Source of the DNA: a virus
Taxonomy: Duplodnaviria; Heunggongvirae; Uroviricota; Caudoviricetes
Length of the DNA stretch: 64,000 nt
Strand: one strand, 5' to 3'
IMG/VR virus record: IMGVR_UViG_3300002334_000208
Part shown: positions 21,351 to 35,711 of the stretch, one piece after another
Layout: each line of letters starts with the position of its first letter
Position numbering within the stretch: the stretch's first letter is position 1
Translations under genes and position numbers: made by a program
Notes under the pieces: generated by a model
The model's input: only the letters and a program-made list of their open reading frames with translations
Database searches by the model: none
What the model was told of the DNA's origin: nothing

Positions 21351-21600
21351 ACGGTACAAAATATGTGGACCAACTTCTAGTGGAAATTTCTTTGTTTCTT
21401 ATCATGTGTGGGGACCGTTCTGGAAAAAGTCTATTATGGATGGCTGGTACTATCCACGGCAATATGACAGTTTTGCTACAGCAGAAATATATCTTAAAAC
21501 TCAGCGCAAACAAGACGCAGTAATTGATGAGGCAGTTGCAGACGCAAAAATAAAAAAAGCACAACGAAGAAAAGATTACAAATGTCAGGAAATAAAATGA
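21343..21600 (+). CDS. hypothetical protein (start moved to MSRRYK)
   Basis: ORF. Confidence 0.35.
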   Translation: MSRRYKICGPTSSGNFFVSYHVWGPFWKKSIMDGWYYPRQYDSFATAEIYLKTQRKQDAVIDEAVADAKIKKAQRRKDYKCQEIK

Positions 21601-22604
21601 GCAAGCAAACTCTCGGCGTCTTCATCGGACGCTTCCAACCATTTCACGCCGGTCATCTGGAAACAACCAGACAGGCGCTGGAGCTTTTTGATAAAGTGAT
21701 TATCATTATTGGCTCGGCGGACGTACCGGCAACAACTAAAAATCCTTTGGATATAGAGGCGCGCTCAGCAATTATTACAGCAGCATTCACCACTGAGGAA
21801 TTAGCACGTATCCACATCACCCGCGCAGACGACCATGACTACCAGCCAGGGCGCTGGATTGAACAGATCAAAATTCTGGTAGAGTGGACTCATTCACCCG
21901 ACCAGTGGGACATCACGCTGGTAGGACATCACAAAGATGAATCTTCATCTTATCTGGACTGGTTTCCAAATTGGAACTTCTACGAGTCTGAAAATTTCGA
22001 TGGCATGGGTGCTACGACAATCCGTGATCAGTTTTTCAATGGCAGTTCACAATTTATTTCTCCGAATTTCTTCTGCAACGAAAAACATCGGGCAGAAGTG
22101 TTTGATCGGATGACGCCACTGGCAGATATTCTCAGACCGGAATGGTGCCTAATTCACGAATATGAGAGCATTTGGGGTAAAGGGCCTCACAGGACCGCTG
22201 ACGCGCTTGTCGAGTGCAACGGTCATATCCTACTGATTGAACGCGGCCAAGCGCCCGGCAAAGGTCTTCTGGCGTTTCCCGGAGGCTTTCTGGAAAAAGG
22301 CGAGAGATTAATTGATGCTTCTATCCGAGAATTGATGGAAGAGACTAATATTGGTATCACAAAAAGTGAACTAATTGACTCTGCTTCACTTCCAATTGTG
22401 TTCGATGCCAAAAATCGCGATCCGCGCAGTTGGAATATCTCTGGGTTGACACATTTCAAAATTACGGCTACGACTTTACCAGACGTACACCCAGCAGACG
22501 ATGCGGCAAAAACAAGCTGGTATCCAATCACCATGATGCATGGTAAAGGAAAATTATTCTTTGCGGACCACTATCGAATTATTCAGAAACTTCTAAACGT
22601 TTAG
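21582..22604 (+). CDS. nadM: bifunctional NMN adenylyltransferase / Nudix hydrolase
   Basis: GVFIGRFQPFHAGH (HxGH nucleotidyltransferase motif) N-terminal; Nudix box GGFLEKGERLIDASIRELMEETNI C-terminal. Confidence 0.8.
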   Translation: MSGNKMSKQTLGVFIGRFQPFHAGHLETTRQALELFDKVIIIIGSADVPATTKNPLDIEARSAIITAAFTTEELARIHITRADDHDYQPGRWIEQIKILVEWTHSPDQWDITLVGHHKDESSSYLDWFPNWNFYESENFDGMGATTIRDQFFNGSSQFISPNFFCNEKHRAEVFDRMTPLADILRPEWCLIHEYESIWGKGPHRTADALVECNGHILLIERGQAPGKGLLAFPGGFLEKGERLIDASIRELMEETNIGITKSELIDSASLPIVFDAKNRDPRSWNISGLTHFKITATTLPDVHPADDAAKTSWYPITMMHGKGKLFFADHYRIIQKLLNV

Positions 22605-22612
22605 GAAATAAC

Positions 22613-23011
22613 ATGCCAGTCAATAAACAGAATATTGATATCTTGATAGACATCCTAAAAGATGAAGAAGTATTTTTTGATATGGCAGATTATCAAATCT
22701 ATACATCGCCATCTTCATGCGGAACAGCTTCATGCGGAACAGCTTCCTGCCTATGTGGGCATATTAATTATATATTGAACGGAGGTAAAATGGAACCTCA
22801 GGATTGGGGTAGACATAGTACAGCAAATAAGTTCTTGGGAATCTCGGACAGCGAAGGTAGGCTGTTATTTTTACCGGAAGAGAAGGTCATGCCAGACATA
22901 TATGGCGGCGATCTTTCACTTCAAAGAAAACTGGCGATAAATACATTACTGCATCTTAAAGAGACTGGCGAAGTTAACTGGTCTGATGCTAATCAAAAAA
23001 TCGGAGCATAA
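22613..23011 (+). CDS. hypothetical protein with SCGTA tandem peptide repeat
   Basis: 15-nt tandem DNA repeat 22717-22752. Confidence 0.4.
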   Translation: MPVNKQNIDILIDILKDEEVFFDMADYQIYTSPSSCGTASCGTASCLCGHINYILNGGKMEPQDWGRHSTANKFLGISDSEGRLLFLPEEKVMPDIYGGDLSLQRKLAINTLLHLKETGEVNWSDANQKIGA

Positions 23012-23012
23012 C

Positions 23013-24419
23013 ATGACAGCCAATATTATTCTCGACACCGACAGCTACAAGCAAAGTCACCATCTGCAGGACCCACCCGGTACCACGCACAAATCGTTCT
23101 ACATCACGGCGCGGGGAAACCCGGACACTGATTGTGAAGTTGCATTTCTGGGGCTGCAGCCGTACATCGAAAATATGCGCATCAACGCACAGAATATTGA
23201 AGAAGCGCAAGACGTTATTCCGAAGCACATCCCCGGGCTGGAATTCAATTTCGATGGCTGGCAAACAATCCTCAATGAATTCGATGGCTTTCTTCCTATC
23301 GCCATTGATGCGCTGCCGGAAGGAACTGTTGTCGAACGTGGTACACCGATGTTGCAGACGCACAACACCGATCCTCGTTTTCCTTGGCTCTGTGGGCATC
23401 AGGAAACTCGTATGCTCCGTTCGATCTGGTATCCATCTACGGTTGGTACCAAATCTCGTGGCTACAGGAGATTGATCGAAGAAGCTCTCCGCAAAACAGG
23501 TGGCGATGTTGACTCCGCTGTATTCAAGCTCCACGATTTCGGTGCGCGCGGCGTATCATCTCGTGAATCTTCTGCCATCGGCGGCTGGGCGCATCTCACC
23601 AGTTTTCAAGGTACGGATACAATGATGGCGCTGCTACATGCTCGCCAATATTACAATTGTGATATGGCTGGATTTTCCATACCGGCGTCCGAACACTCAA
23701 CAATGGCCTGTTGGGGTGAAGGGCGAGAGGTCGAAGCATACCGTCACATGCTGGAGACTTTTGGTCACACGATGTTTGGCACCGTCTCAGACACATGGGA
23801 TATTGAAAACGCCTGTACAAATGTTTGGGGCAACACGCTCAGAGATGAAGTTATTGCAATTCTTGGTCAGCTTGTCGTCCGCCCCGACTCTGGCGCAGTA
23901 ATCCCAATGGTGCTAGATTGTTTGGATCGCCTCGGTGTCCAGTTTGGTATTACCTTCAACAATGATGGCTTCAAAATGCTGCACGATAAAGTGCGGTTGA
24001 TCCAAGGTGATGGACTTGACGATACTTCTTTACCCCTCCTGATTGGTGCTATTGCTGATGCATTGTGGTCACTCGATAATACTGCATTTGGTATGGGTGG
24101 CGGTCTGCTGCAGAAGCACAATCGTGATGATTATAAATGGGCGATGAAATGTAATGCTATCTCATATGGTGATGAGGTCTGGCATGGAGTCAACAAAGAA
24201 CCAAAATCTGATCCAGGCAAAGCGTCTGCAAAAGGCAGAGCCTGGGTGAGCCAAGAAAATCATGTCTGGTATTCCAGCAGACATCAGCTATTAAGTTTTG
24301 AGGAAGATACAAATCCGGTCTTTCCTAATGCGCTCATCACTCATTATGTCAATGGCTTCACAACCATCGACGGTGACATGGAAGCTATTCGTGAAAGGGT
24401 TGCTCAAGATGTCAGATAA
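23013..24419 (+). CDS. nadV: nicotinamide phosphoribosyltransferase
   Basis: N-terminus ILDTDSYKQSHH, length ~468 aa, GTD and DG motifs typical of NAPRTase/Nampt family. Confidence 0.8.
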   Translation: MTANIILDTDSYKQSHHLQDPPGTTHKSFYITARGNPDTDCEVAFLGLQPYIENMRINAQNIEEAQDVIPKHIPGLEFNFDGWQTILNEFDGFLPIAIDALPEGTVVERGTPMLQTHNTDPRFPWLCGHQETRMLRSIWYPSTVGTKSRGYRRLIEEALRKTGGDVDSAVFKLHDFGARGVSSRESSAIGGWAHLTSFQGTDTMMALLHARQYYNCDMAGFSIPASEHSTMACWGEGREVEAYRHMLETFGHTMFGTVSDTWDIENACTNVWGNTLRDEVIAILGQLVVRPDSGAVIPMVLDCLDRLGVQFGITFNNDGFKMLHDKVRLIQGDGLDDTSLPLLIGAIADALWSLDNTAFGMGGGLLQKHNRDDYKWAMKCNAISYGDEVWHGVNKEPKSDPGKASAKGRAWVSQENHVWYSSRHQLLSFEEDTNPVFPNALITHYVNGFTTIDGDMEAIRERVAQDVR

Positions 24420-26245: not shown

Positions 26246-26800
26246 ATGGAGACGATAATGACACACGAAACCAGACATGTAATGATCGACATCGAAACGC
26301 TTGGGACACAACCTGGCTCGGTTATCATTCAAATTGGGGCCAAGCGCTTTGATCCTCGCACCGGCTATGTTTTTGTTAGAGATTTCGAGATGGGCATTGA
26401 TCCAAATTACCCACCATCGCTCAACGCTATTATTGATGCAGAGACTTTGAAATGGTGGCTGCAGCAAGACCCTAAAGTTCTGGCTAAAGTCATGTCCGGC
26501 ACTCATAATATTGTCAATGGCATGCGTGGTCTTTCTGAATATTGTTCCGGTTGCACTCATTTTTGGGCTAAGTCACCAGACTTCGACATGGGTCTTCTGG
26601 GTTATTTTTATGGAAAGTATTACACATCAACGCCTTGGACATACAAGAATAGAATGGATGTGCGAACTGTGCTTGAAATGGCAGATGTAACACAGCCACC
26701 GGCAGTGACTCCACATGACGCCGTGTCCGATTGTGAGGCTCAAATCATAGGAGTGTTGACAGCTTACGAAAAATGCGGTAAGACTGTCGTACTCGCCTAG
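26246..26800 (+). CDS. DEDD-family 3'-5' exonuclease
   Basis: VMIDIETLG (Exo I), HDAVSDC (Exo III-like H..D). Confidence 0.55.
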   Translation: METIMTHETRHVMIDIETLGTQPGSVIIQIGAKRFDPRTGYVFVRDFEMGIDPNYPPSLNAIIDAETLKWWLQQDPKVLAKVMSGTHNIVNGMRGLSEYCSGCTHFWAKSPDFDMGLLGYFYGKYYTSTPWTYKNRMDVRTVLEMADVTQPPAVTPHDAVSDCEAQIIGVLTAYEKCGKTVVLA

Positions 26801-27008: not shown

Positions 27009-27302
27009 ATGAAAATAACTCAGCAAGGATCAAGAACAAACGTCACTATGACGTTTTCAAATGGGTACAGCGTCAGTCTGACATCAGGCCACCGTGTAGG
27101 CTTGGAAGATTTTGGAATCATCTGGGCTGCATATTGGTCTGCAATCGACACCACCACAATCTCAGTTAATGAGTGGATGTATGATGATGAAGCTACTAAG
27201 TTTCTTGATTACATGAGCAAACTGGAGCCAGTCAATAATACTGTTGACAGTAAAGAATATATCGACGCAGACATCATCAAAATTTTTGGAGGCAATGGAT
27301 GA
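27009..27302 (+). CDS. hypothetical protein translationally coupled to rtcB
   Basis: 4-nt ATGA overlap with rtcB start. Confidence 0.4.
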   Translation: MKITQQGSRTNVTMTFSNGYSVSLTSGHRVGLEDFGIIWAAYWSAIDTTTISVNEWMYDDEATKFLDYMSKLEPVNNTVDSKEYIDADIIKIFGGNG

Positions 27303-28714
27303 ACATCACCGGCAGACATTTAATCGAATGGGGTTTCAACCCCGGTCCATTGTTTCCTGTTATGTTGGCATATGCCAATCAGCAGACGTACATTGACGAG
27401 CGCAGTCTTGAAGGCATCAAAAACTTACTTTTGGCACAGGATGAATTCATTCCTGTACCAAAACTTGAGCTGAAACCTCTCAGCCTTGATCCCCTTGCCA
27501 ATGTGACTTTCAACATCCTAACAACTGCTGGATGCGAATACGACCTAGATAACCTCTTGGCTGTAGAAAAAATCATGGGCAAACTCATGCGTACTCCGGT
27601 CGCCACTCGCGCAACTGTATTACCTGACGCCTGTCCTACTGGACCTAATTCAATGCCGGTTGGCACTGTTGTGGAAAGCCCACACATTCATCCCGGTTGG
27701 CACAGTGCCGATATCTGCTGCTCTATGTTCTTGACTGAGTACAAAAACGTAACCCCTGCTATCCTATTGGATGCGGTGAGTGATGCTGTGCATTTCGGCC
27801 CCGGTGGTCCAGACAGATATCGCATGACTGATGAATTGTTGGAAGCGTTCATGGGGAATTCATTCCTGAATGATCCACATATGTTGGACCTTGCAAACCG
27901 CCATCTTGGCAGTTCTGGCGATGGAAACCATTTTGCCTCGGTTGGCACTATGCAATCTAGCGGCAACACTACTCTTGTAACTCACTCTGGTTCTCGCGGC
28001 CCTGGCGCTCGCCTATATAAAATTGGCATGAAGGCAGCTCAGAAATACACCAAGTCTATTTCTCCGGCTACCCATAAATCAAATGCTTGGATTGACTCTG
28101 AAAGCGCAGAAGGTATTGAATACTGGAAAGCTCTGCAGATCATGCGCGACTGGACTAAATTGAATCATACTTTGATTCATGCAAGTTCTAGTTATCGCGC
28201 TATGGCTAAGGCTAATAATATACGTACTGTTAACCGCTTCTGGAACGAACACAATTTCGTATTCAAGCGCAATGGCATGTTTCTGCATGGCAAAGGTGCG
28301 ACTCCAGCCTTCGACGGTTGGGCAGATGATGCTAAAATGTTCACCATCATACCATTAAACGCCGCTGAGCCGATTCTAATCACTCGTGGCAGCGACAACC
28401 CTGATGCCCTTGGATTCGCTCCACACGGCGCAGGCAGGCTGATTTCACGCGCCCAGCACAAAAGAGACCTAGTAGCCGTTGGTATCTCTGACGCGCAGGC
28501 TTTCGAAGAAGAAACTCGTGATATCGATATGAGGTTCTGGTCCGGCGAAGCTGACGTGACTGAGCTACCATCCGCCTATAAAAATGCGTCGATGATCCGT
28601 GAAGGTATCAAAAAGTATGAGCTTGCACAGATCGTAGACCAAGTGTTGCCGTATGGATGCATCATGGGTGGTGTGTTCGATTGGCGAAATTATGCTAACG
28701 AGCAATTCAGCTAA
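27299..28714 (+). CDS. rtcB: RNA-splicing ligase RtcB (3'-phosphate/5'-hydroxyl RNA ligase)
   Basis: 471 aa; metal/GMP-binding motifs GDGNHFASVG, HSGSRGPG, APHGAGR. Confidence 0.85.
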   Translation: MNITGRHLIEWGFNPGPLFPVMLAYANQQTYIDERSLEGIKNLLLAQDEFIPVPKLELKPLSLDPLANVTFNILTTAGCEYDLDNLLAVEKIMGKLMRTPVATRATVLPDACPTGPNSMPVGTVVESPHIHPGWHSADICCSMFLTEYKNVTPAILLDAVSDAVHFGPGGPDRYRMTDELLEAFMGNSFLNDPHMLDLANRHLGSSGDGNHFASVGTMQSSGNTTLVTHSGSRGPGARLYKIGMKAAQKYTKSISPATHKSNAWIDSESAEGIEYWKALQIMRDWTKLNHTLIHASSSYRAMAKANNIRTVNRFWNEHNFVFKRNGMFLHGKGATPAFDGWADDAKMFTIIPLNAAEPILITRGSDNPDALGFAPHGAGRLISRAQHKRDLVAVGISDAQAFEEETRDIDMRFWSGEADVTELPSAYKNASMIREGIKKYELAQIVDQVLPYGCIMGGVFDWRNYANEQFS

Positions 28715-28732
28715 ACAAATTGGAGTTTATAA

Positions 28733-29422
28733 ATGAAAAAACCATCGACAAGAGCTGATGGACTCGCTCGTGATATGATCGAAGGACGCCCAACGCGCCA
28801 GAGCAATCCATCTTCCTTGATGGAGTATGTTCGGAGCGGAGGTGACAAAGAACGCCTTGGCGGTGTACTGGATCAGTTAGAGCAAGAGAAATCTGTACAG
28901 CCGACAACTGCCAAAATGACGATTGAGAAACTTATTGATTTGTGTAATACCACAAACGAACTTATTGAAGAAGCACTTTACGGCAGTGAAGAAGGCTATG
29001 CATGTACACGAACCGATGGCGAAGGAAACATATGCAAAGGTTTATTGGAATATTATCCTGATCATCCAGAGATGGGATGTTCATGCCACATAAACCCACC
29101 TTGCTCTTACTGCACCGATCAGCATTTAGAATGCCCGAAATGTGGATGGAAAGAAGAGTCAATTATTCACATTATAAATGATCATGTAGTGTCAGTTAAT
29201 AAAGACACCGGTGTGCTTACCAGCCATGGTCGGCGCAAGCTGGATAACACAAAAATCGATTATTATATCAACTCCCACAGTAATTCATCTCAGATATGCG
29301 AAGGCGTATATCCTAAAGGGACAACACGAGCCGAAGTCTTAAAAAAAGTTGATGGCACTTTTGGGGGAAGATGGGAAAGTTTTGGCAACGGCAAATTTAA
29401 ATTTATCGCGTACACTGATTAG
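28733..29422 (+). CDS. Cys-rich zinc-finger protein (229 aa)
   Basis: GCSCH...CSYC...CPKCGW cysteine clusters. Confidence 0.4.
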   Translation: MKKPSTRADGLARDMIEGRPTRQSNPSSLMEYVRSGGDKERLGGVLDQLEQEKSVQPTTAKMTIEKLIDLCNTTNELIEEALYGSEEGYACTRTDGEGNICKGLLEYYPDHPEMGCSCHINPPCSYCTDQHLECPKCGWKEESIIHIINDHVVSVNKDTGVLTSHGRRKLDNTKIDYYINSHSNSSQICEGVYPKGTTRAEVLKKVDGTFGGRWESFGNGKFKFIAYTD

Positions 29423-29614
29423 GAGCATGCCATGAAATATACTATGAAGAAAAAAGAGCCACTAAACACAAAAATATGGCACCGATGGTTTGCATGGCAT
29501 CCTGTGATCACTCGACAGAATACTATTACATGGCTATCCTTTGTCTGCCGGAAACAAGAGTTCTGGCGTGGCGGTAGATGCTGGCACTATTCAAATACTG
29601 ATGATTGAGGATTT

Positions 29615-29690
29615 TGGAGACATAGGTGGGAATCGAACCCACATGTGAAGATTTGCAGTCAACTGCGCTTACCGTTTCCGCCACTATGTC
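29615..29690 (-). tRNA. tRNA-like gene, 76 nt with encoded CCA; anticodon GCA (Cys) if the loop is placed as CUGCAAA
   Basis: reverse complement GACATAGTGGCGG...GTGGGTTCGATTCCCACCTATGTCTCCA. Perfect 7-bp acceptor stem, perfect 5-bp T stem with canonical TTCGATT loop, 3-bp D stem. The anticodon stem has two U-U mismatches, so it may score as atypical or pseudo. Confidence 0.5.
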
Positions 29691-30072
29691 ATATTGTTTC
29701 TGTCCAGTTACCTGTGTCAGGATCGATAATCTCGACTTTTGTCTGGCGCAGCTGTTTATCAACTTTTGCATCCAGTCCATCGTACAACCCAAGTCTCTTG
29801 GCTGTCTCGATCTTATGCCATGCCTTGAATATGCCTGTGGCAGACATGCGCCTGAACGCTTCCATTTTGTTTCTGAGCTGAGACCGATGCTCTTCACAAT
29901 TACCAACAGCACCAGAATCGATGTGAGTACACCGAACTGCGCTATCAGTTTTGTTACGCTTTTGACCACCTTTGCCGGAACCTCGATAGAAGTCCCAGCG
30001 GCAGTCTTTAGCAGTTACAGAAAATAGAAGTTCTTTAGCCATTACGCTGCGCGGACCATAGGATCGGCGCAT
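29689..30072 (-). CDS. GGQ-motif peptidyl-tRNA hydrolase (class-I release factor domain-3 only; ArfB/PrfH-like)
   Basis: RGSGKGGQKRNKTDSAVRCTHIDSG...CEEHRSQLRNK matches the RF GGQ catalytic domain; 127 aa; stop codon overlaps the tRNA 5' end. Confidence 0.7.
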   Translation of the reverse strand: MRRSYGPRSVMAKELLFSVTAKDCRWDFYRGSGKGGQKRNKTDSAVRCTHIDSGAVGNCEEHRSQLRNKMEAFRRMSATGIFKAWHKIETAKRLGLYDGLDAKVDKQLRQTKVEIIDPDTGNWTETI

Positions 30073-30425
30073 GAAGCAAAGTCACTAAGACGTTTTGCAT
30101 TCTTGCGAGCGCGCTTGGCATGTGCCGCATTGATGCGTCCCTGATGCAGCTCGGCATTTTGCGCCGGAGACAAACAGGTGGGGTGAGCATAAATGATTGG
30201 AGGTCCGCCCCAGCGAGCAATCTTTTTCAGATGATCTGCAAAGACTGGCAGAAATCTATCTCGAAAACCTTTGCGCTTCTGAACTGAAACGCGAGAGGTA
30301 TTCACGGCGTCCATCATTGCGGCGAGGAAGCCATTTGAATATGGATTTGTGCGTTGAGGTACGCCAAGTGCAGCTGCTGCGCCGGATGACATAACAGCGT
30401 TTTTGAGGGATTTCAGTAGTGACAT
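30042..30425 (-). CDS. hypothetical basic protein (127 aa)
   Basis: ORF upstream of GGQ gene, same strand. Confidence 0.4.
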   Translation of the reverse strand: MSLLKSLKNAVMSSGAAAALGVPQRTNPYSNGFLAAMMDAVNTSRVSVQKRKGFRDRFLPVFADHLKKIARWGGPPIIYAHPTCLSPAQNAELHQGRINAAHAKRARKNAKRLSDFASCADPMVRAA

Positions 30426-30465
30426 TTATTTCTCCTGTCGAGGTTAATATTACCCGAACATAGAG

Positions 30466-30696
30466 TTAATCACTCTTTCTGTCAAGGTTGCTATCGAATG
30501 GGATGCAAGTGATATTCACTTCATTGATAAATGGTGGCTTGAAGCGAATCACTTCTGCAGCCACCCTCCGACATATATCCATAGAAGGAAAATTGCGTGG
30601 ACTGAAATCCTGCTGATATTTGTCGTTGAGCATTAGCCCAGCTTCGCCATAAATCATGCCGACCAGTACAAAGACTGTCATTGTTACGCCTGTCAT
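30466..30696 (-). CDS. small membrane protein (76 aa)
   Basis: N-terminal TM helix. Confidence 0.35.
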   Translation of the reverse strand: MTGVTMTVFVLVGMIYGEAGLMLNDKYQQDFSPRNFPSMDICRRVAAEVIRFKPPFINEVNITCIPFDSNLDRKSD

Positions 30697-31217
30697 TTCG
30701 ATCTCCTTATCATCGCCCTGACACGAGCCAGAACTTTCGGTTTACCAGCAATGCTGATGTGATTTGCGTTCTTCACTACGATAACGGTACCACGATTTAG
30801 TGGTCTACCAATGGGATCGTCGGTGATAAAATTGTCTACGAAGCGAGGCACCCTGGAAACCACAGGGGATTTCGGCGCGTCGATGATGGCGAGATAGTCG
30901 ATCTTGATTCCCTCTGCTGCCAACCGGCGCGAGAGCTTCGCTGCAGCGGTACCACCGAGCGAGTGACCAATGATTATGAGTGGGCGATGGAGTATACCGG
31001 CTTCACTTCTTTTTATGATGTCATTGTAGATGCGATTACCGGCATGCCGTGTGTAAACCTTCGCGCCAACTTTTGATGAAAGAGATTTTAACCCATGACC
31101 AAAAGAAGAGCCGCCAAGCCCCATGATTGCATATGATGGTTTTGCAGGATTATATTCTGACGTGGTTGTGCAACCAGCCATGAATATGAGAATAAAAATG
31201 AGAAGTAGTTTACGCAT
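30693..31217 (-). CDS. lipoprotein alpha/beta-hydrolase (GxSxG esterase/lipase-like)
   Basis: lipobox IFMAGC; nucleophile elbow IIGHSLGG. Confidence 0.55.
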   Translation of the reverse strand: MRKLLLIFILIFMAGCTTTSEYNPAKPSYAIMGLGGSSFGHGLKSLSSKVGAKVYTRHAGNRIYNDIIKRSEAGILHRPLIIIGHSLGGTAAAKLSRRLAAEGIKIDYLAIIDAPKSPVVSRVPRFVDNFITDDPIGRPLNRGTVIVVKNANHISIAGKPKVLARVRAMIRRSK

Positions 31218-31340
31218 ATCGTCACCTTTTTATGGGAGCGCAGAGGCAGGAACAACAACAAACCCGCCTCCGGCTCAACCTATAGCGAAGTCACAGGGGA
31301 ATGAACTCCGCTAATAAGGTAACATTTTTTCAAAGAATCT

Positions 31341-31700
31341 TCAAGAATTCTTTGCTAATATCTTCAAACGTATGTCGATCCACTCCATTAATTGTGGAAG
31401 AGTTATGCAACCGGCACCGCCAGCGACAATTTCTCCGCCCCTAAATAGAACGAAACTGGGAGCAAATTTGCAATCATATGTGATCCCAAGGTCTTTGTCT
31501 TCATCCAAATCGGAGTATAAAAACAAACACTTATCGCCAATCTTCTTTTCGGCGTTATCAAGAATGATATCAAATTTGTTGCAGGGACCAGCCCATTCAG
31601 TCACAAAAGTCAGAAGAATTAAATCATCTGCCTTCTGAGCCTGGAGTAATTTTGCAAATTCATCGCAAAGGACGAATGAGAGTTGATCTGGTTTCTGCAT
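31341..31700 (-). CDS. thioredoxin-fold protein with non-canonical WAGPC active site
   Basis: LTFVTEWAGPCNKF aligns to Trx WCGPC; first (nucleophilic) Cys replaced by Ala. Confidence 0.6.
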   Translation of the reverse strand: MQKPDQLSFVLCDEFAKLLQAQKADDLILLTFVTEWAGPCNKFDIILDNAEKKIGDKCLFLYSDLDEDKDLGITYDCKFAPSFVLFRGGEIVAGGAGCITLPQLMEWIDIRLKILAKNS

Positions 31701-34739: not shown

Positions 34740-35123
34740 AAAAACCTACTTACGTTCAAAATCTGATACTGGGATATACCACGCAAAATTAACTATGACA
34801 AGAAAAAACTTGCAACGGTTTCAACTTTCTTGCTATAAAGTAAGCTGAAATTAAGGATTTATTATGGCTAAAGCATTTACTAACCCCAACTTAGAATGCC
34901 TATGCGCGCGCGTCCCAATAGACAAGTCGATGCTGATTGTTACCAAAGAACGCCGCCTCGTTGCAGCGTTCCATAAAGATTGCCCGGAACATGGCTGGAA
35001 AGAAACAATCCCTAAGAATGCGGTCGTCATCGTCCGTTAACCATTCTAAGAAAATAACGTTGTATTCTTAGAACATTAATCCTAGATTGAGAGGGAGTTA
35101 CTACCACTTACTAGGAGTTACTA

Positions 35124-35711
35124 ATGACAATCAAACGTGCAAAAGTTTTGACAGACAAACAATTCAGCAAACTGATGAAGCACCTCGCGGAGGGATTAAA
35201 CCCAGAGCGCGACCATGTGATGTTTGCTCTCTCATTTAAGTGCGGACTGCGCGCACAGGAGATTGCCGGGTTGAACTGGATTGACGTGACGGACGCCGAG
35301 GGGAACATCTACAAGCCGGATACAATGATCGAGTTGCCCCACTCAATTACGAAAGGCTCCGTGACAGAGGGTAAAATCATCATGCACAAGTTGGTATATA
35401 ACACATTGAAGAATCTGCGCAAAGCAAATTTGTCTGAATTTCTTATGCCAGCGCCACGCTCACCTTCTGGGCGCATGTCCACAAACAACGTGACAGTTTA
35501 TATGCATGCCGTGTTCAAGAAGCTCGGTTATGTTGGCTGCTCCAGCCACTCCGGGCGGCGCACGTTTGGCACAAAGTTGGCGCGTATTGCCAACAAGCAA
35601 GGAGGCTCTTTCGTGGATGTGAAAGATTTACTCCGCCACAAAGACATTCGAACGACACGAGCATATGTTGATTCTAGTGACACGCAGAAGAAGATGATTG
35701 CCGCAATATAA
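35124..35711 (+). CDS. short tyrosine recombinase (integrase/invertase catalytic domain only)
   Basis: box I GLRAQEIAGL, box II HSGRRTFGT, LLRHKDIRTTRAYVD with catalytic Tyr; only 195 aa. Confidence 0.65.
   Translation: MTIKRAKVLTDKQFSKLMKHLAEGLNPERDHVMFALSFKCGLRAQEIAGLNWIDVTDAEGNIYKPDTMIELPHSITKGSVTEGKIIMHKLVYNTLKNLRKANLSEFLMPAPRSPSGRMSTNNVTVYMHAVFKKLGYVGCSSHSGRRTFGTKLARIANKQGGSFVDVKDLLRHKDIRTTRAYVDSSDTQKKMIAAI

Follow-up and report, generated by a model that had tools for sequence, protein, structure and literature searches.

A tRNA-Cys(GCA) gene with tandem U·U mismatches in its anticodon stem is probably a functional phage tRNA gene beside RNA-repair genes

The tRNA genes of large lytic phages (T4, T5, phiCbK-like phages and the mycobacteriophages of clusters C, L and M) are complete, lie among early or auxiliary genes and encode their CCA, and in mycobacteriophages genes for RtcB and RF-1-domain proteins also co-occur with them. 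Phage integrases often target tRNA 3' halves, and attP sites of the P4, P22 and HP1 type, which lie over such 3' halves, likewise bring a tRNA-derived sequence and a tyrosine recombinase together in one phage genome. Phage tRNAs can also resist nucleases, as described for T5 tRNA-Tyr against retron-Eco7 PtuAB, phage tRNA-Lys against PARIS AriB and phage tRNA-Thr(UGU) against P2-OLD (PMC11555353, PMC12445682, PMC10264068). P2-OLD cuts tRNAs after nucleotide 28 and after nucleotide 40, at paired C28-N-G30/C40-N-G42 motifs with A37, and phage tRNA-Thr escape it when the CNG motif is altered and the stem is also shortened (PMC12445682). In bacteria, the RtcB2-PrfH rescue-and-repair operon sets a GGQ release-factor-like gene beside a gene for an RtcB ligase (PMC9304027).

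We analysed a 64,000-nt stretch of DNA from a virus of the Caudoviricetes (the window), in which a sequence-only reading had pointed to a tRNA-like gene with a mismatched anticodon stem and had proposed that it was either a divergent functional phage tRNA or the remnant of an attP. The gene and its central features are as follows.

29615-29690, minus strand: tRNA-Cys(GCA) gene, 76 nt, CCA encoded, U73, 4-nt variable loop (ARAGORN, Rfam RF00005, direct read)
29647-29663, minus strand: anticodon arm GUUGA/CUGCAAA/UCUUC (non-standard pairs flagged in the cmscan alignment)
29654-29656, minus strand: anticodon GCA, tRNA positions 34-36 (ARAGORN places the anticodon at gene position 35)

The minus strand of 29615-29690 reads GACATAGTGGCGGAAACGGTAAGCGCAGTTGACTGCAAATCTTCACATGTGGGTTCGATTCCCACCTATGTCTCCA, 76 nt including the encoded CCA. 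The tRNA search tools suggested as a check were in agreement: ARAGORN called a tRNA-Cys(gca) at exactly 29615-29690 on the minus strand, the sole tRNA in the window, and the Rfam covariance model RF00005 gave 53.7 bits where the gathering score is 29 (window E-value 9.6e-9), with model positions 1-71 of 71 aligned. This score is in the middle of the range of tRNAs in phage arrays (30.6 to 75 bits). The acceptor stem is paired 7/7, the T stem (GTGGG/CCCAC) is paired 5/5, and the T loop is TTCGATT (UUCGAUU), all as the sequence-only reading had described; G53-C61, G18G19, U8 and A14 are present as well, so that the full set of cloverleaf features is found. The D stem has a G13·G22 mismatch; of the 11 viral tRNA-Cys that were aligned, 10 have no pair at 13:22. 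The anticodon loop, CUGCAAA, has seven nucleotides with U33 and A37. Direct reading also bore out the anticodon arm, the GCA (Cys) anticodon and the two U-U mismatches reported for it. Standard pairs are formed at G27-C43, G30-C40 and A31-U39, and the tandem mismatches are U28·U42 (29662 with 29648) and U29·U41 (29661 with 29649).

The major identity elements for CysRS in E. coli are the GCA anticodon and the U73 discriminator. Both are present in the window tRNA, and U73 is invariant in the viral tRNA-Cys with Y·Y stems (12/12). The window tRNA and E. coli tRNA-Cys(GCA) further share A37, the 4-nt variable loop, the unpaired 13:22, G30-C40 and A31-U39. They differ in the acceptor stem, which is AU-rich in the window (GACAUAG versus GGCGCGU in E. 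coli), in the Levitt pair (A15:U48 versus G15:G48) and at 28:42 and 29:41 (U·U/U·U versus C-G/G-C); a need for G15:G48 is particular to the E. coli CysRS. The tRNA-Cys that we examined from cultured phages (LeBron, AM6 and Nanosmite) have fully paired anticodon stems, unlike the window gene. In the genes of the window, cysteine is encoded by 136 TGC and 73 TGT codons, TGC being preferred.

In contrast to the tRNA genes of large lytic phages, the window gene stands alone rather than in an array, and no similar tRNA was found in GenBank phages, where blastn returned one weak match only (81.5% over 53 nt). Megablast of 28000-31500 against the same phages gave no match, and a close cultured relative was not found. 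An exact 41-nt pattern of the tRNA had no match in IMG/VR, and exact look-ups of the GGQ protein described below, of its 117-aa form and of RtcB returned no contig; in the protein collection, the phage is present on 7 JGI contigs, with no variants. The genes around the tRNA are these.

26246-26800, plus strand: Rv2179c-like 3'-5' exoribonuclease (Pfam PF16473, 109.5 bits)
27299-28714, plus strand: RtcB-family RNA ligase (Pfam RtcB, 105 bits; phrog_1075, 4.8e-76; weak matches to solved RtcB structures)
28733-29422, plus strand: p229, a cysteine-rich protein of 229 aa (10 Cys) with a conserved C-terminal domain (phrog_22771, 1.3e-43)
29432-29608, plus strand: 58-aa ORF convergent with the tRNA and stopping 6 nt short of its 3' end (ORF list)
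29689-30042, minus strand: stand-alone protein with a GGQ (RF-1) domain, 117 aa when read from its likely start M11; longest ORF to 30072 (Pfam RF-1, 70.3 bits; phrog_3122)
30042-30425, minus strand: 127-aa protein, function not assigned, in the same operon as the tRNA and a conserved neighbour of it (53% identical to an ORF of L446)

The sole orthologue of the window tRNA-Cys was found in a related phage fragment, L446, where a syntenic tRNA-Cys(GCA) lies between homologues of p229 (73% aa identity), which is thus also a conserved neighbour of the tRNA, and of the 30042-30425 protein (53%). A homologue search with the latter ORF returned only itself, and the 58-aa ORF, which matches no family in Pfam or phrog, is absent from L446. 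The two tRNAs are identical at 55 of 76 nt, and six pairs have changed on both sides between them: 4:69, 12:23, 30:40, 31:39, 50:64 and 51:63. On this comparison of sequences, with synteny retained and six stem pairs changed in a compensatory way, the tRNA-Cys gene is to be regarded as under selection. The anticodon stem of the L446 tRNA is fully paired, and the lineage has thus not conserved U·U. The L446 tRNA is itself aberrant, with an A54/A60 T loop and G10·A25, and fails the Rfam model even at E <= 10.

Given the two adjacent mismatches together with G13·G22, we considered whether the gene is a decaying or non-functional pseudogene with a broken anticodon stem. Folding predictions give this some weight: the isolated anticodon stem-loop has a predicted energy of -0.1 kcal/mol, that is, almost no stability (a repaired stem gives -5.0 and the arm of E. 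coli tRNA-Cys -6.9), and the MFE fold of the entire molecule departs from the cloverleaf, with a z-score of only -1.29. The failure of the L446 orthologue in the Rfam model also hints at relaxed constraint in the lineage. However, the six compensatory double changes preserve every other helix, no pair is lost in the acceptor or T stem, and the T loop, U33, A37, U73 and CCA are canonical, while most tRNA-Cys are unpaired at 13:22. Coding genes also flank the gene closely: one overlaps it by 2 nt and the other lies 6 nt away. What counts against a functional tRNA is rarity, since among 1.7 million bacterial tRNAs only 0.2% have an anticodon stem other than 4 or 5 bp; a fully Watson-Crick 5-bp stem is nevertheless typical rather than defining, as 5.8% deviate from it (PMC13092985). 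Decay of the gene is, in our judgement, unlikely, all the more so as the same motif was found in more than 20 otherwise intact viral tRNAs.

Tandem U·U mismatches at the same positions were found in viral tRNA-Cys at 10 loci with 8 distinct sequences (at least 8 besides the window gene). At these loci the gene belongs to a cluster of 3-29 tRNA genes, and the GC content of the contigs is 33-54%. In an alignment of 11 such tRNA-Cys, pairing was 100% at 27:43, 30:40 and 31:39 as well as throughout the acceptor and T stems, with compensatory changes. A restriction of the motif to tRNA-Cys was considered and rejected, since an anticodon-agnostic scan found tandem U·U also in about 12 distinct tRNAs for Lys, Thr, Pro, Asn, Arg and Ile, spanning seven other anticodons, with the flanking pairs kept in all of them. 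All 12 of the U·U or Y·Y tRNAs that were tested pass Rfam (39.7-64.7 bits). In a control scan with A or C at all four mismatch positions (16 combinations), no tRNA was found. Among 77 unselected viral tRNA-Cys there was no internal tandem mismatch and one single U·U (1/77), and the tandem U·U tRNA-Cys are commoner than expected under independence from that single-mismatch frequency; U28:A42 is the commonest 28:42 pair (31/77). The deviation of the anticodon stem is thus real and rare, yet recurrent in tRNAs that pass the model. Because the same mismatches recur in other phage tRNAs, they appear tolerated or useful rather than a product of decay, and tandem U28·U42/U29·U41 is, as judged from these sequences, a non-canonical motif tolerated by working phage tRNAs.

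The position of the mismatches raises a more specific and still tentative possibility, which refines the functional reading and is compatible with it: the tandem U·U may be an adaptation that makes the tRNA-Cys resistant to an anticodon-stem nuclease of the host or a prophage, such as an OLD-family Toprim nuclease, by taking away both its recognition motif and its double-stranded substrate, so that the phage copy would outlive the host's only tRNA-Cys when that is destroyed. E. coli tRNA-Cys (GCGGA/UCCGU) carries the P2-OLD motif, whereas the window stem (GUUGA/UCUUC) keeps G30, C40 and A37, has U in place of C28 and G42, and is unpaired exactly at the cut sites. As with the described nuclease-resistant phage tRNAs, the host version is a single-copy tRNA, the changes fall at P2-OLD recognition and cut sites, and counter-defence genes are nearby, with NAD+ salvage genes (NAMPT and NMNAT/Nudix) and RtcB in the tRNA region and Gad2 in the same block of a related locus (L082). 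The viral U·U tRNAs include Thr(UGU) three times as well as Lys(UUU), known targets of OLD and PARIS, and the excess of tandem U·U tRNA-Cys over the number expected from single U·U points the same way. Against this, no double mismatch destabilises less than tandem U·U, and tolerance alone could explain why U·U occurs without A/C mismatches. The paired stem of the L446 orthologue also argues against it, and the frequency of U28:A42 means that most viral tRNA-Cys lack C28/G42 without having a mismatch. In the OLD study itself, changing C28/G42 alone gave no protection (PMC12445682). Published escapes work through changed anticodon loops, or through a CNG change combined with the loss of a terminal pair, and an internal tandem U·U is not among them.

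A broader version, which we regard as doubtful, is that tandem U·U is a selected signature, shared by the window tRNA-Cys and at least 20 further phage tRNAs (Cys, Lys, Thr, Pro, Asn, Arg and Ile), which as a class would evade stem-cutting nucleases and tend to travel with RtcB and a GGQ mini-protein. If so, the middle of the stem would be kept pyrimidine·pyrimidine between flanking standard pairs as a guard against cuts at 28/29 and 40/41, such as those made by P2-OLD.

A weakened anticodon stem could in principle also promote near-cognate reading of UGA, either as programmed read-through or as partial UGA-to-Cys decoding. There is precedent for this in that tRNA-Cys(GCA) naturally reads through UGA in yeast and in human cells (PMC6614816, PMC10573299), that read-through is governed by anticodon-stem length and the 28:42 pair (bioRxiv 10.1101/2023.06.19.543857), and that a tRNA-Trp with a 4-bp stem reads UGA in bacteria (PMC13092985). 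In the yeast work, however, a pyrimidine:pyrimidine 28:42 pair did not raise read-through. In the window, TGA ends 16 of 57 genes, long ORFs are intact under the standard code, and a candidate read-through gene was not identified. Stop-codon use is ordinary, so UGA recoding was rejected, and we consider a UGA-reading role of the tRNA highly improbable.

The functional reading is also informed by the gene order. The tRNA-Cys is the last gene of a minus-strand operon that comprises a primase-helicase, a thioredoxin, small ORFs, the GGQ protein and the tRNA, and this operon abuts a convergent RNA-repair cluster of the 3'-5' exoribonuclease, RtcB and p229. RtcB ligases seal 2',3'-cyclic-phosphate or 3'-phosphate ends to 5'-OH ends. 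The GGQ gene starts at M11 in a TAATG overlap with the upstream ORF, and its GGQ motif is invariant in 20 homologues. The protein could not be assigned as PrfH, as it scored 56.2 bits against the TIGR03072 cut-off of 166.65 with only its GGQ part aligning (profile positions 103-161 of 200), and the protein, of 117-127 aa, lacks the N-terminal ribosome-recognition domain. It was rejected as ArfB as well (NF006718, 32.9 bits against a cut-off of 100, with only profile positions 11-40 aligning). In comparison with the RtcB2-PrfH operon, the phage protein is thus a GGQ domain with a short tail, and the tRNA gene lies between the GGQ and RtcB genes, which are convergent in the window. In L082, which encodes a 67%-identical GGQ protein, RtcB follows co-directionally about 500 nt downstream.

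How far this neighbourhood extends to the tRNA itself is variable. No GGQ gene adjoins the orthologous tRNA of L446, and the juxtaposition of tRNA and GGQ gene is thus not conserved. In a phage with a 65%-identical GGQ protein, the GGQ gene sits inside a tRNA island. Among the relatives identified via the GGQ protein, L001 and L082-L084 have no tRNA nearby, and L085-L087 have a tRNA island that lacks tRNA-Cys. A metagenome scan with an alignment-derived GGQ pattern gave, among the at least 600 stretches listed, only distant GGQ proteins, the phage itself being absent. A survey of 80 RtcB loci found a tRNA or tmRNA gene within 6 kb in 20 of them (a tRNA in 19), with varied identities, and showed no specific link between RtcB and tRNA-Cys. 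Neither RtcB nor a tRNA is annotated in the 10-55 kb region of the 101-kb genome of Microcystis phage Mwe-JY26.

The TGA stop of the GGQ gene (29691-29689) overlaps nucleotides 1-2 of the tRNA, which suggested that the tRNA might serve mainly as an RNA-processing signal (tRNA punctuation), with the 5' cut by RNase P setting the 3' end of the operon mRNA. E. coli ArfA is made from a truncated non-stop mRNA, and a cut inside the GGQ TGA would similarly leave a non-stop mRNA, so that synthesis of the rescue factor could depend on the state of ribosome rescue. It fits this idea that no terminator-like site was found between the convergent genes; promoter and terminator scans around the tRNA gave nothing above the shuffled expectation. 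However, the overlap is not conserved, as the L446 locus lacks a GGQ gene and its tRNA is preceded by a 6-nt spacer, and neither in L085 nor in L225 does the GGQ gene run into a tRNA at its end. In compact phage genomes ORFs and tRNAs commonly overlap by a few nucleotides, and punctuation would not account for the conserved anticodon, U73 and CCA. We therefore hold such a primary role to be quite unlikely.

The second alternative of the sequence-only reading was that the tRNA is the core or remnant of an attP derived from a host tRNA gene and used by a nearby recombinase.

35124-35711, plus strand: tyrosine recombinase, 195 aa, catalytic domain only (Pfam Phage_integrase, 64.7 bits)

The recombinase ORF noted at the outset is real and starts 5,434 nt from the tRNA. 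Its family and its distance of 5.4 kb would be in keeping with an attP, and real att-like fragments of tRNA-Cys do occur in viral contigs (located in L274, L276, L286-L287 and L290-L293). Those genuine fragments, however, are 3' halves that have no 5' half and give no tRNA call, whereas the window tRNA is full length. Seven ORFs, including the primase, lie between it and the recombinase, which has no N-terminal DNA-binding domain and whose closest relatives (36-39% aa identity) are conserved genes of large lytic phages, namely phiCbK-like Caulobacter phages, DSS3P8, Lacusarx and Mwe-JY26. A functional link between the recombinase and the tRNA is not supported.

A host tRNA with an identical 3' half, another check that had been proposed, did not turn up either. 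When 185,579 species were scanned, each represented by one genome, the last 29 nt of the tRNA matched nowhere exactly, although the host may not be among the species sampled, and a relaxed 23-nt pattern gave six matches, none of them a tRNA-Cys with this T stem. Matches in Flavobacteriia MAGs were rejected as attB, as all they have in common with the tRNA is the T loop and a 9-nt piece of the acceptor strand, and ARAGORN finds no tRNA there. No second copy of the tRNA 3' end is present in the window. Moreover, the L446 locus holds a diverged tRNA with compensatory changes, which is unexpected for a sequence held identical to a host gene. The window tRNA differs from the P4-, P22- and HP1-type sites in being whole, in lying apart from the recombinase and in matching no host segment identically among the genomes scanned, and we regard an attP origin as very improbable.

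The feature is thus most probably (at roughly 75%) a genuine, functional phage tRNA-Cys(GCA) gene in a translation-repair island rather than an attP remnant, as judged from the full cloverleaf, the calls by two tools, U73 with GCA, the L446 orthologue and the recurrence of U·U, which together favour the first of the two original alternatives. The phage is a large one of the lytic type, distantly related to the phiCbK/DSS3P8/Lacusarx/Mwe-JY26 group, with its own replication and nucleotide-metabolism genes; the window encodes a DNA polymerase, a primase, a ribonucleotide reductase, a thymidylate synthase and the NAD+ salvage genes. In the functional reading, the tRNA would be co-transcribed with the minus-strand operon, its 5' end would be freed by host RNase P and its 3' end trimmed by an exonuclease, and no CCA addition would be needed because CCA is encoded. 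Host CysRS would then charge the tRNA through U73 and GCA, supplying Cys-tRNA for UGC and UGU codons during infection. The phage tRNA may in this way top up or replace the host tRNA-Cys, usually single-copy, while the translation apparatus is under attack, alongside RtcB, which would religate cleaved RNA, and the GGQ protein, which would release stalled peptidyl-tRNA. The tandem U·U may be either merely tolerated or selected, for example for escape from stem-cutting nucleases.

A phage tRNA gene is ordinary in itself, and the useful result here is a negative one: the mismatched stem and the nearby recombinase mark neither an integration site nor a dead gene. Many unrelated phage tRNAs with otherwise paired helices have tandem U·U, exactly where P2-OLD amputates the anticodon arm, and, if phages do use stem mismatches, this would be a form of tRNA protection additional to the known anticodon-loop changes. 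The stand-alone GGQ protein beside RtcB and tRNAs in several unrelated phages parallels the bacterial PrfH-RtcB2 pair, and by this analogy suggests that phages may carry a compact kit that keeps translation going under ribotoxin-type defences.

The sequence-only reading described a tRNA-like gene with perfect acceptor and T arms and a mismatched anticodon stem, and this observation is confirmed by the sequence. It had suggested scoring with tRNA search tools, and both tools used gave positive results. ARAGORN called a tRNA-Cys(GCA) at exactly 29615-29690 and no other tRNA in the 64-kb window, and the Rfam tRNA model matched the gene over its full length with 53.7 bits (gathering score 29, E = 9.6e-9), which is mid-range among phage tRNA-array tRNAs scored likewise (30.6 to 75 bits). 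The acceptor stem is paired at 7/7 positions and the T stem at 5/5, with a T loop of UUCGAUU, and the anticodon arm consists of G27-C43, U28·U42, U29·U41, G30-C40, and A31-U39 with the loop CUGCAAA. A G13·G22 mismatch in the D stem, the U73 discriminator, and a 4-nt variable loop had not been named in that reading. The GCA anticodon, U73, and the 4-nt variable loop are the same in E. coli tRNA-Cys, whose sequence was checked against the annotated, single-copy gene of 5,425 E. coli genomes and agreed at 100%. The window tRNA is a real phage tRNA-Cys gene, which is complete, carries the cysteine identity bases, bears the marks of structural selection, and lies at the 3' end of an operon, squeezed between coding genes:

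29615-29690, minus strand, tRNA-Cys(GCA) gene, sequence GACATAGTGGCGGAAACGGTAAGCGCAGTTGACTGCAAATCTTCACATGTGGGTTCGATTCCCACCTATGTCTCCA
26246-26800, plus strand, Rv2179c-like 3'-5' exoribonuclease
27299-28714, plus strand, RtcB
28733-29422, plus strand, p229, a 229-aa cysteine-rich protein without known family
plus strand, 58-aa ORF, its end 6 nt from the tRNA 3' end

The tRNA is the final gene of a minus-strand operon that comprises a primase-helicase (1005 aa), thioredoxin, three small ORFs, a stand-alone RF-1 domain protein (hereafter the GGQ protein), and the tRNA. The GGQ protein has its probable start at M11, where its gene overlaps the ORF before it in a TAATG (30040-30044), and the TGA stop of its gene (29689-29691) shares nucleotides 1-2 of the tRNA, so that RNase P processing would leave the mRNA of a rescue-type factor stopless. 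A role of the tRNA as a pure RNA-processing signal would have this appealing consequence, the removal of a stop codon by the RNase P cut, but the overlap is not conserved in three other viral contigs (L446, L085, and L225), and we consider such a role quite improbable.

The earlier suggestion that the tRNA could be the remnant of an attP overlapping a host tRNA gene did not hold, and we rejected an integration site on five grounds, namely completeness, no host match, no repeat, the kin of the recombinase, and distance. Genuine tRNA-Cys 3' halves were found in the scanned viral contigs (L274, L276, L286-L287, and L290-L293); they begin near the anticodon loop, are mostly CCA-ended, gave no tRNA call, and are probably the att sites of phages integrating into tRNA-Cys genes. 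In contrast to the complete window tRNA, these fragments lack the 5' half. In the host-genome search that had been proposed for the 3' end, no matching host tRNA-Cys segment was found: the last 29 nt had no exact match in one genome each from 185,579 species, and a relaxed pattern with the T stem left free gave six matches, none of them in a tRNA-Cys and none with the window T stem. A search within the window found no second copy of the 3' end. The tyrosine recombinase (35124-35711, plus strand) is a 195-aa protein with the catalytic domain only, encoded 5.4 kb from the tRNA on the opposite strand with seven ORFs between. Its closest relatives (36-39% identity over the full length) are a conserved gene in phiCbK-like Caulobacter phages, Lacusarx, DSS3P8/Ruegeria, Erythrobacter, and Brevundimonas phages, and Mwe-JY26, which we take to be large virulent phages. 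A 30-bp palindrome (TTCTAAGAAAATAAC/GTTGTATTCTTAGAA, 35044-35073), whose outer arms are perfect over 9 bp, sits between two divergent genes, 50 nt upstream of the recombinase gene, and could be a recombinase or regulatory site.

An orthologue of the tRNA is carried by L446, a 1,391-bp contig from a different sample that was reached via its homologue (73% identity) of p229, the most conserved neighbor of the tRNA. This tRNA-Cys(GCA), at 710-785, occupies the equivalent position, flanked on one side by the p229 homologue and on the other by a counterpart of the window ORF 30042-30425 (53% identity), and no GGQ gene is present beside it. The two tRNAs are identical at 55/76 positions; among what they share are U73, CCA, the anticodon loop, and ACAU as the variable loop. 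At six pairs (4:69, 12:23, 30:40, 31:39, 50:64, and 51:63), both bases have changed with pairing kept. This number was reached in few shuffles (6/500, with 0-1 in slid registers), and the changes bear the signature of selection on the cloverleaf. The L446 anticodon stem (GGUCU/AGAUC) has every pair formed, and the U·U/U·U of the window tRNA is separated from it by two one-sided differences only, at positions 28 and 41. The L446 tRNA has oddities of its own (a mismatched G10·A25, and A at T-loop positions 54 and 60); it is called as a tRNA by ARAGORN and was undetected by the Rfam tRNA model even at E <= 10.

The mismatched stem is also found elsewhere. IMG/VR was scanned for tRNA-Cys-shaped sequences with U at 28, 29, 41, and 42, and the matches were run through ARAGORN. 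Tandem U·U tRNA-Cys(GCA) was found at ten loci (eight distinct sequences, U73 in all). The clusters to which they belong comprise 3-29 tRNA genes, and the GC content of the contigs ranges over 33-54%. In an alignment of 11 such tRNA-Cys, which includes three variants (U·U/C·C, U·U/C·U, and C·U/C·U), pairing reaches 100% in the acceptor stem, in the T stem, and at 27:43, 30:40, and 31:39 of the anticodon stem, with compensatory changes. A control scan, in which each of the four positions of the same scaffold was A or C, covered 16 mismatch combinations and matched seven stretches, none of them a tRNA; among the matches listed for unselected viral tRNA-Cys, none of 77 distinct sequences had an internal tandem mismatch and 1 of 77 had a single U·U; and three cultured-phage tRNA-Cys have paired stems. 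These three controls, together with the recurrence, indicate that the motif is rare yet recurrent and specific to pyrimidine·pyrimidine pairs, U·U above all. Since the U·U sets were ascertained by pattern, they show recurrence, not frequency. Specificity for cysteine was ruled out by an anticodon-agnostic scan, in which 18 tRNA calls (~12 distinct) had the same U·U/U·U, their specificities being Lys(UUU, CUU), Thr(UGU), Pro(UGG), Asn(GUU), Arg(UCU), and Ile(UAU). All tested tRNAs with U·U or other pyrimidine·pyrimidine mismatches scored above the Rfam threshold (39.7-64.7 bits), and L085 has a tRNA-Phe with U28·U42 and C29·U41 immediately upstream of its GGQ gene. In phage tRNAs the mismatched stem recurs as a motif and is not damage; this recurrence and the covariation with the L446 orthologue both argue against a pseudogene, which we regard as improbable.

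Two further occurrences were noted. A near-identical tRNA-Lys(UUU) (two variants, one nt apart) with the same U·U stem as the window tRNA (GUUGA/UCUUC) is the sole tRNA on each of five viral contigs from different samples, some human-associated (L413, L427, L430, L433, and L445). Possibly the gene belongs to the host and lies next to a prophage; in that case, the motif would be shown to work in a cellular tRNA. On a 152-kb viral contig of 37.5% GC (L266, 6716-9374), a tmRNA, a U·U-stem tRNA-Cys, and a CUA-anticodon (amber-reading) tRNA lie within 3 kb, and this phage may use TAG reassignment or suppression.

In energy predictions, the anticodon stem-loop of the window tRNA reached -0.1 kcal/mol, with no stable hairpin, as compared with -5.0 for a repaired version, -6.9 for E. 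coli, and -3.1 for L446, and folding of the whole tRNA gave an MFE structure other than the cloverleaf. The U·U motif is thus predicted to be thermodynamically costly in isolation. Among 1.7 million bacterial tRNAs, 0.2% have an anticodon stem whose length is neither 4 nor 5 bp (PMC13092985). In tRNAs, the nuclease P2-OLD cuts the anticodon stem following nt 28 and nt 40; it acts where C28-N-G30/C40-N-G42 motifs are paired and A37 is present, and phage tRNA-Thr escapes it by a motif change and a shorter stem (PMC12445682). The motif is present in E. coli tRNA-Cys (GCGGA/UCCGU); the window tRNA (GUUGA/UCUUC) has C28 and G42 replaced, with G30, C40, and A37 kept, and both cut sites are unpaired, which would fit an adaptive role of the U·U stem. 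However, the L446 stem is paired, C28/G42 is already missing in most viral tRNA-Cys (among the matches listed, 77 distinct), and tandem U·U is the mildest double mismatch, favoring mere tolerance, so an adaptive role is possible but doubtful. That the loosened tRNA-Cys reads through UGA is hardly credible, given ordinary stop-codon use (27 TAA, 16 TGA, and 14 TAG) and the finding in yeast that pyrimidine:pyrimidine 28:42 gave no rise in read-through.

The GGQ protein belongs to a stand-alone family of 115-127 aa with >560 homologues, which recurs in phages beside RtcB and/or within tRNA islands and scores under the PrfH and ArfB cut-offs (for the window protein, 56 vs 167 bits and 33 vs 100 bits, respectively). 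Domain 3 is the only part matched in solved release factors, and the GGQ motif does not vary in 20 homologues. Examples are the window gene (29689-30042, with RtcB at 27299-28714), L082 (6001-8170), where the pairing with RtcB is repeated, and L085 (1255-1632) and L225 (9343-9672), where the gene lies within tRNA islands, adjoining a U·U tRNA-Cys in L225. At unselected tRNA-Cys loci, a GGQ gene was found in 0/120. The phage arrangement looks like a pared-down form of the bacterial PrfH-RtcB2 pair, which rescues and repairs ColE3-damaged ribosomes (PMC9304027). In L082, a Gad2-family protein (anti-Gabija, PF26128; 2034-2972) is encoded 3 kb upstream of GGQ/RtcB in the same small-early-gene block, and beside an RtcB gene in another contig (L061, 7736-8001 and 12007-12079) ARAGORN found tRNA-like genes with irregular two- or four-nt anticodon loops. 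p229 has 10 cysteines (4.4%), and its C-terminal ~145-aa domain occurs in hundreds of ~140-aa proteins without a Pfam family.

The whole window is phage DNA, as laid out in part here:

3.9-6.2 kb, terminase genes
21582-24419, adjacent NAMPT (477 aa) and bifunctional NMNAT/Nudix protein (340 aa), an NAD+ salvage pair

It also encodes a topoisomerase, the primase-helicase, helicases, DNA polymerase I, a RecE-like exonuclease, dNMP kinase, thymidylate synthase, ribonucleotide reductase, dUTPase, a lysis amidase, and tail genes. No nucleotide-level relative was found among GenBank phages; by protein, the nearest cultured phage is Microcystis phage Mwe-JY26 (DNA polymerase 47.6%), followed by the phiCbK-like, RcXuper/RpAliso, and DSS3P8 groups (~42%). 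Seven JGI contigs, of up to 85,105 bp, carry the same phage; their proteins are identical, and its 90%-identity clusters showed no protein variants. NAMPT plus NMNAT-type NAD+ salvage is a known phage counter-defense pathway against NAD+-depleting defenses. Because the salvage pair sits 3-8 kb upstream of the RNA-repair cluster, the region at 21.5-30 kb looks like a counter-defense island.

The window tRNA would be co-transcribed with the minus-strand operon (no promoter or terminator signal near it was above background), with its 5' end generated by host RNase P and its 3' end trimmed to the encoded CCA. Once charged by host CysRS, it would decode UGC/UGU; the window has 209 Cys codons in 57 genes, with TGC preferred. 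RtcB joins 2',3'-cyclic-phosphate/5'-OH breaks, which many ribotoxins produce, and GGQ proteins are able to release peptides from stalled ribosomes. The neighboring genes point to translation being kept going under attack, and the mismatched stem in this GGQ-RtcB neighborhood offers a modest, testable lead on how phages may protect translation.
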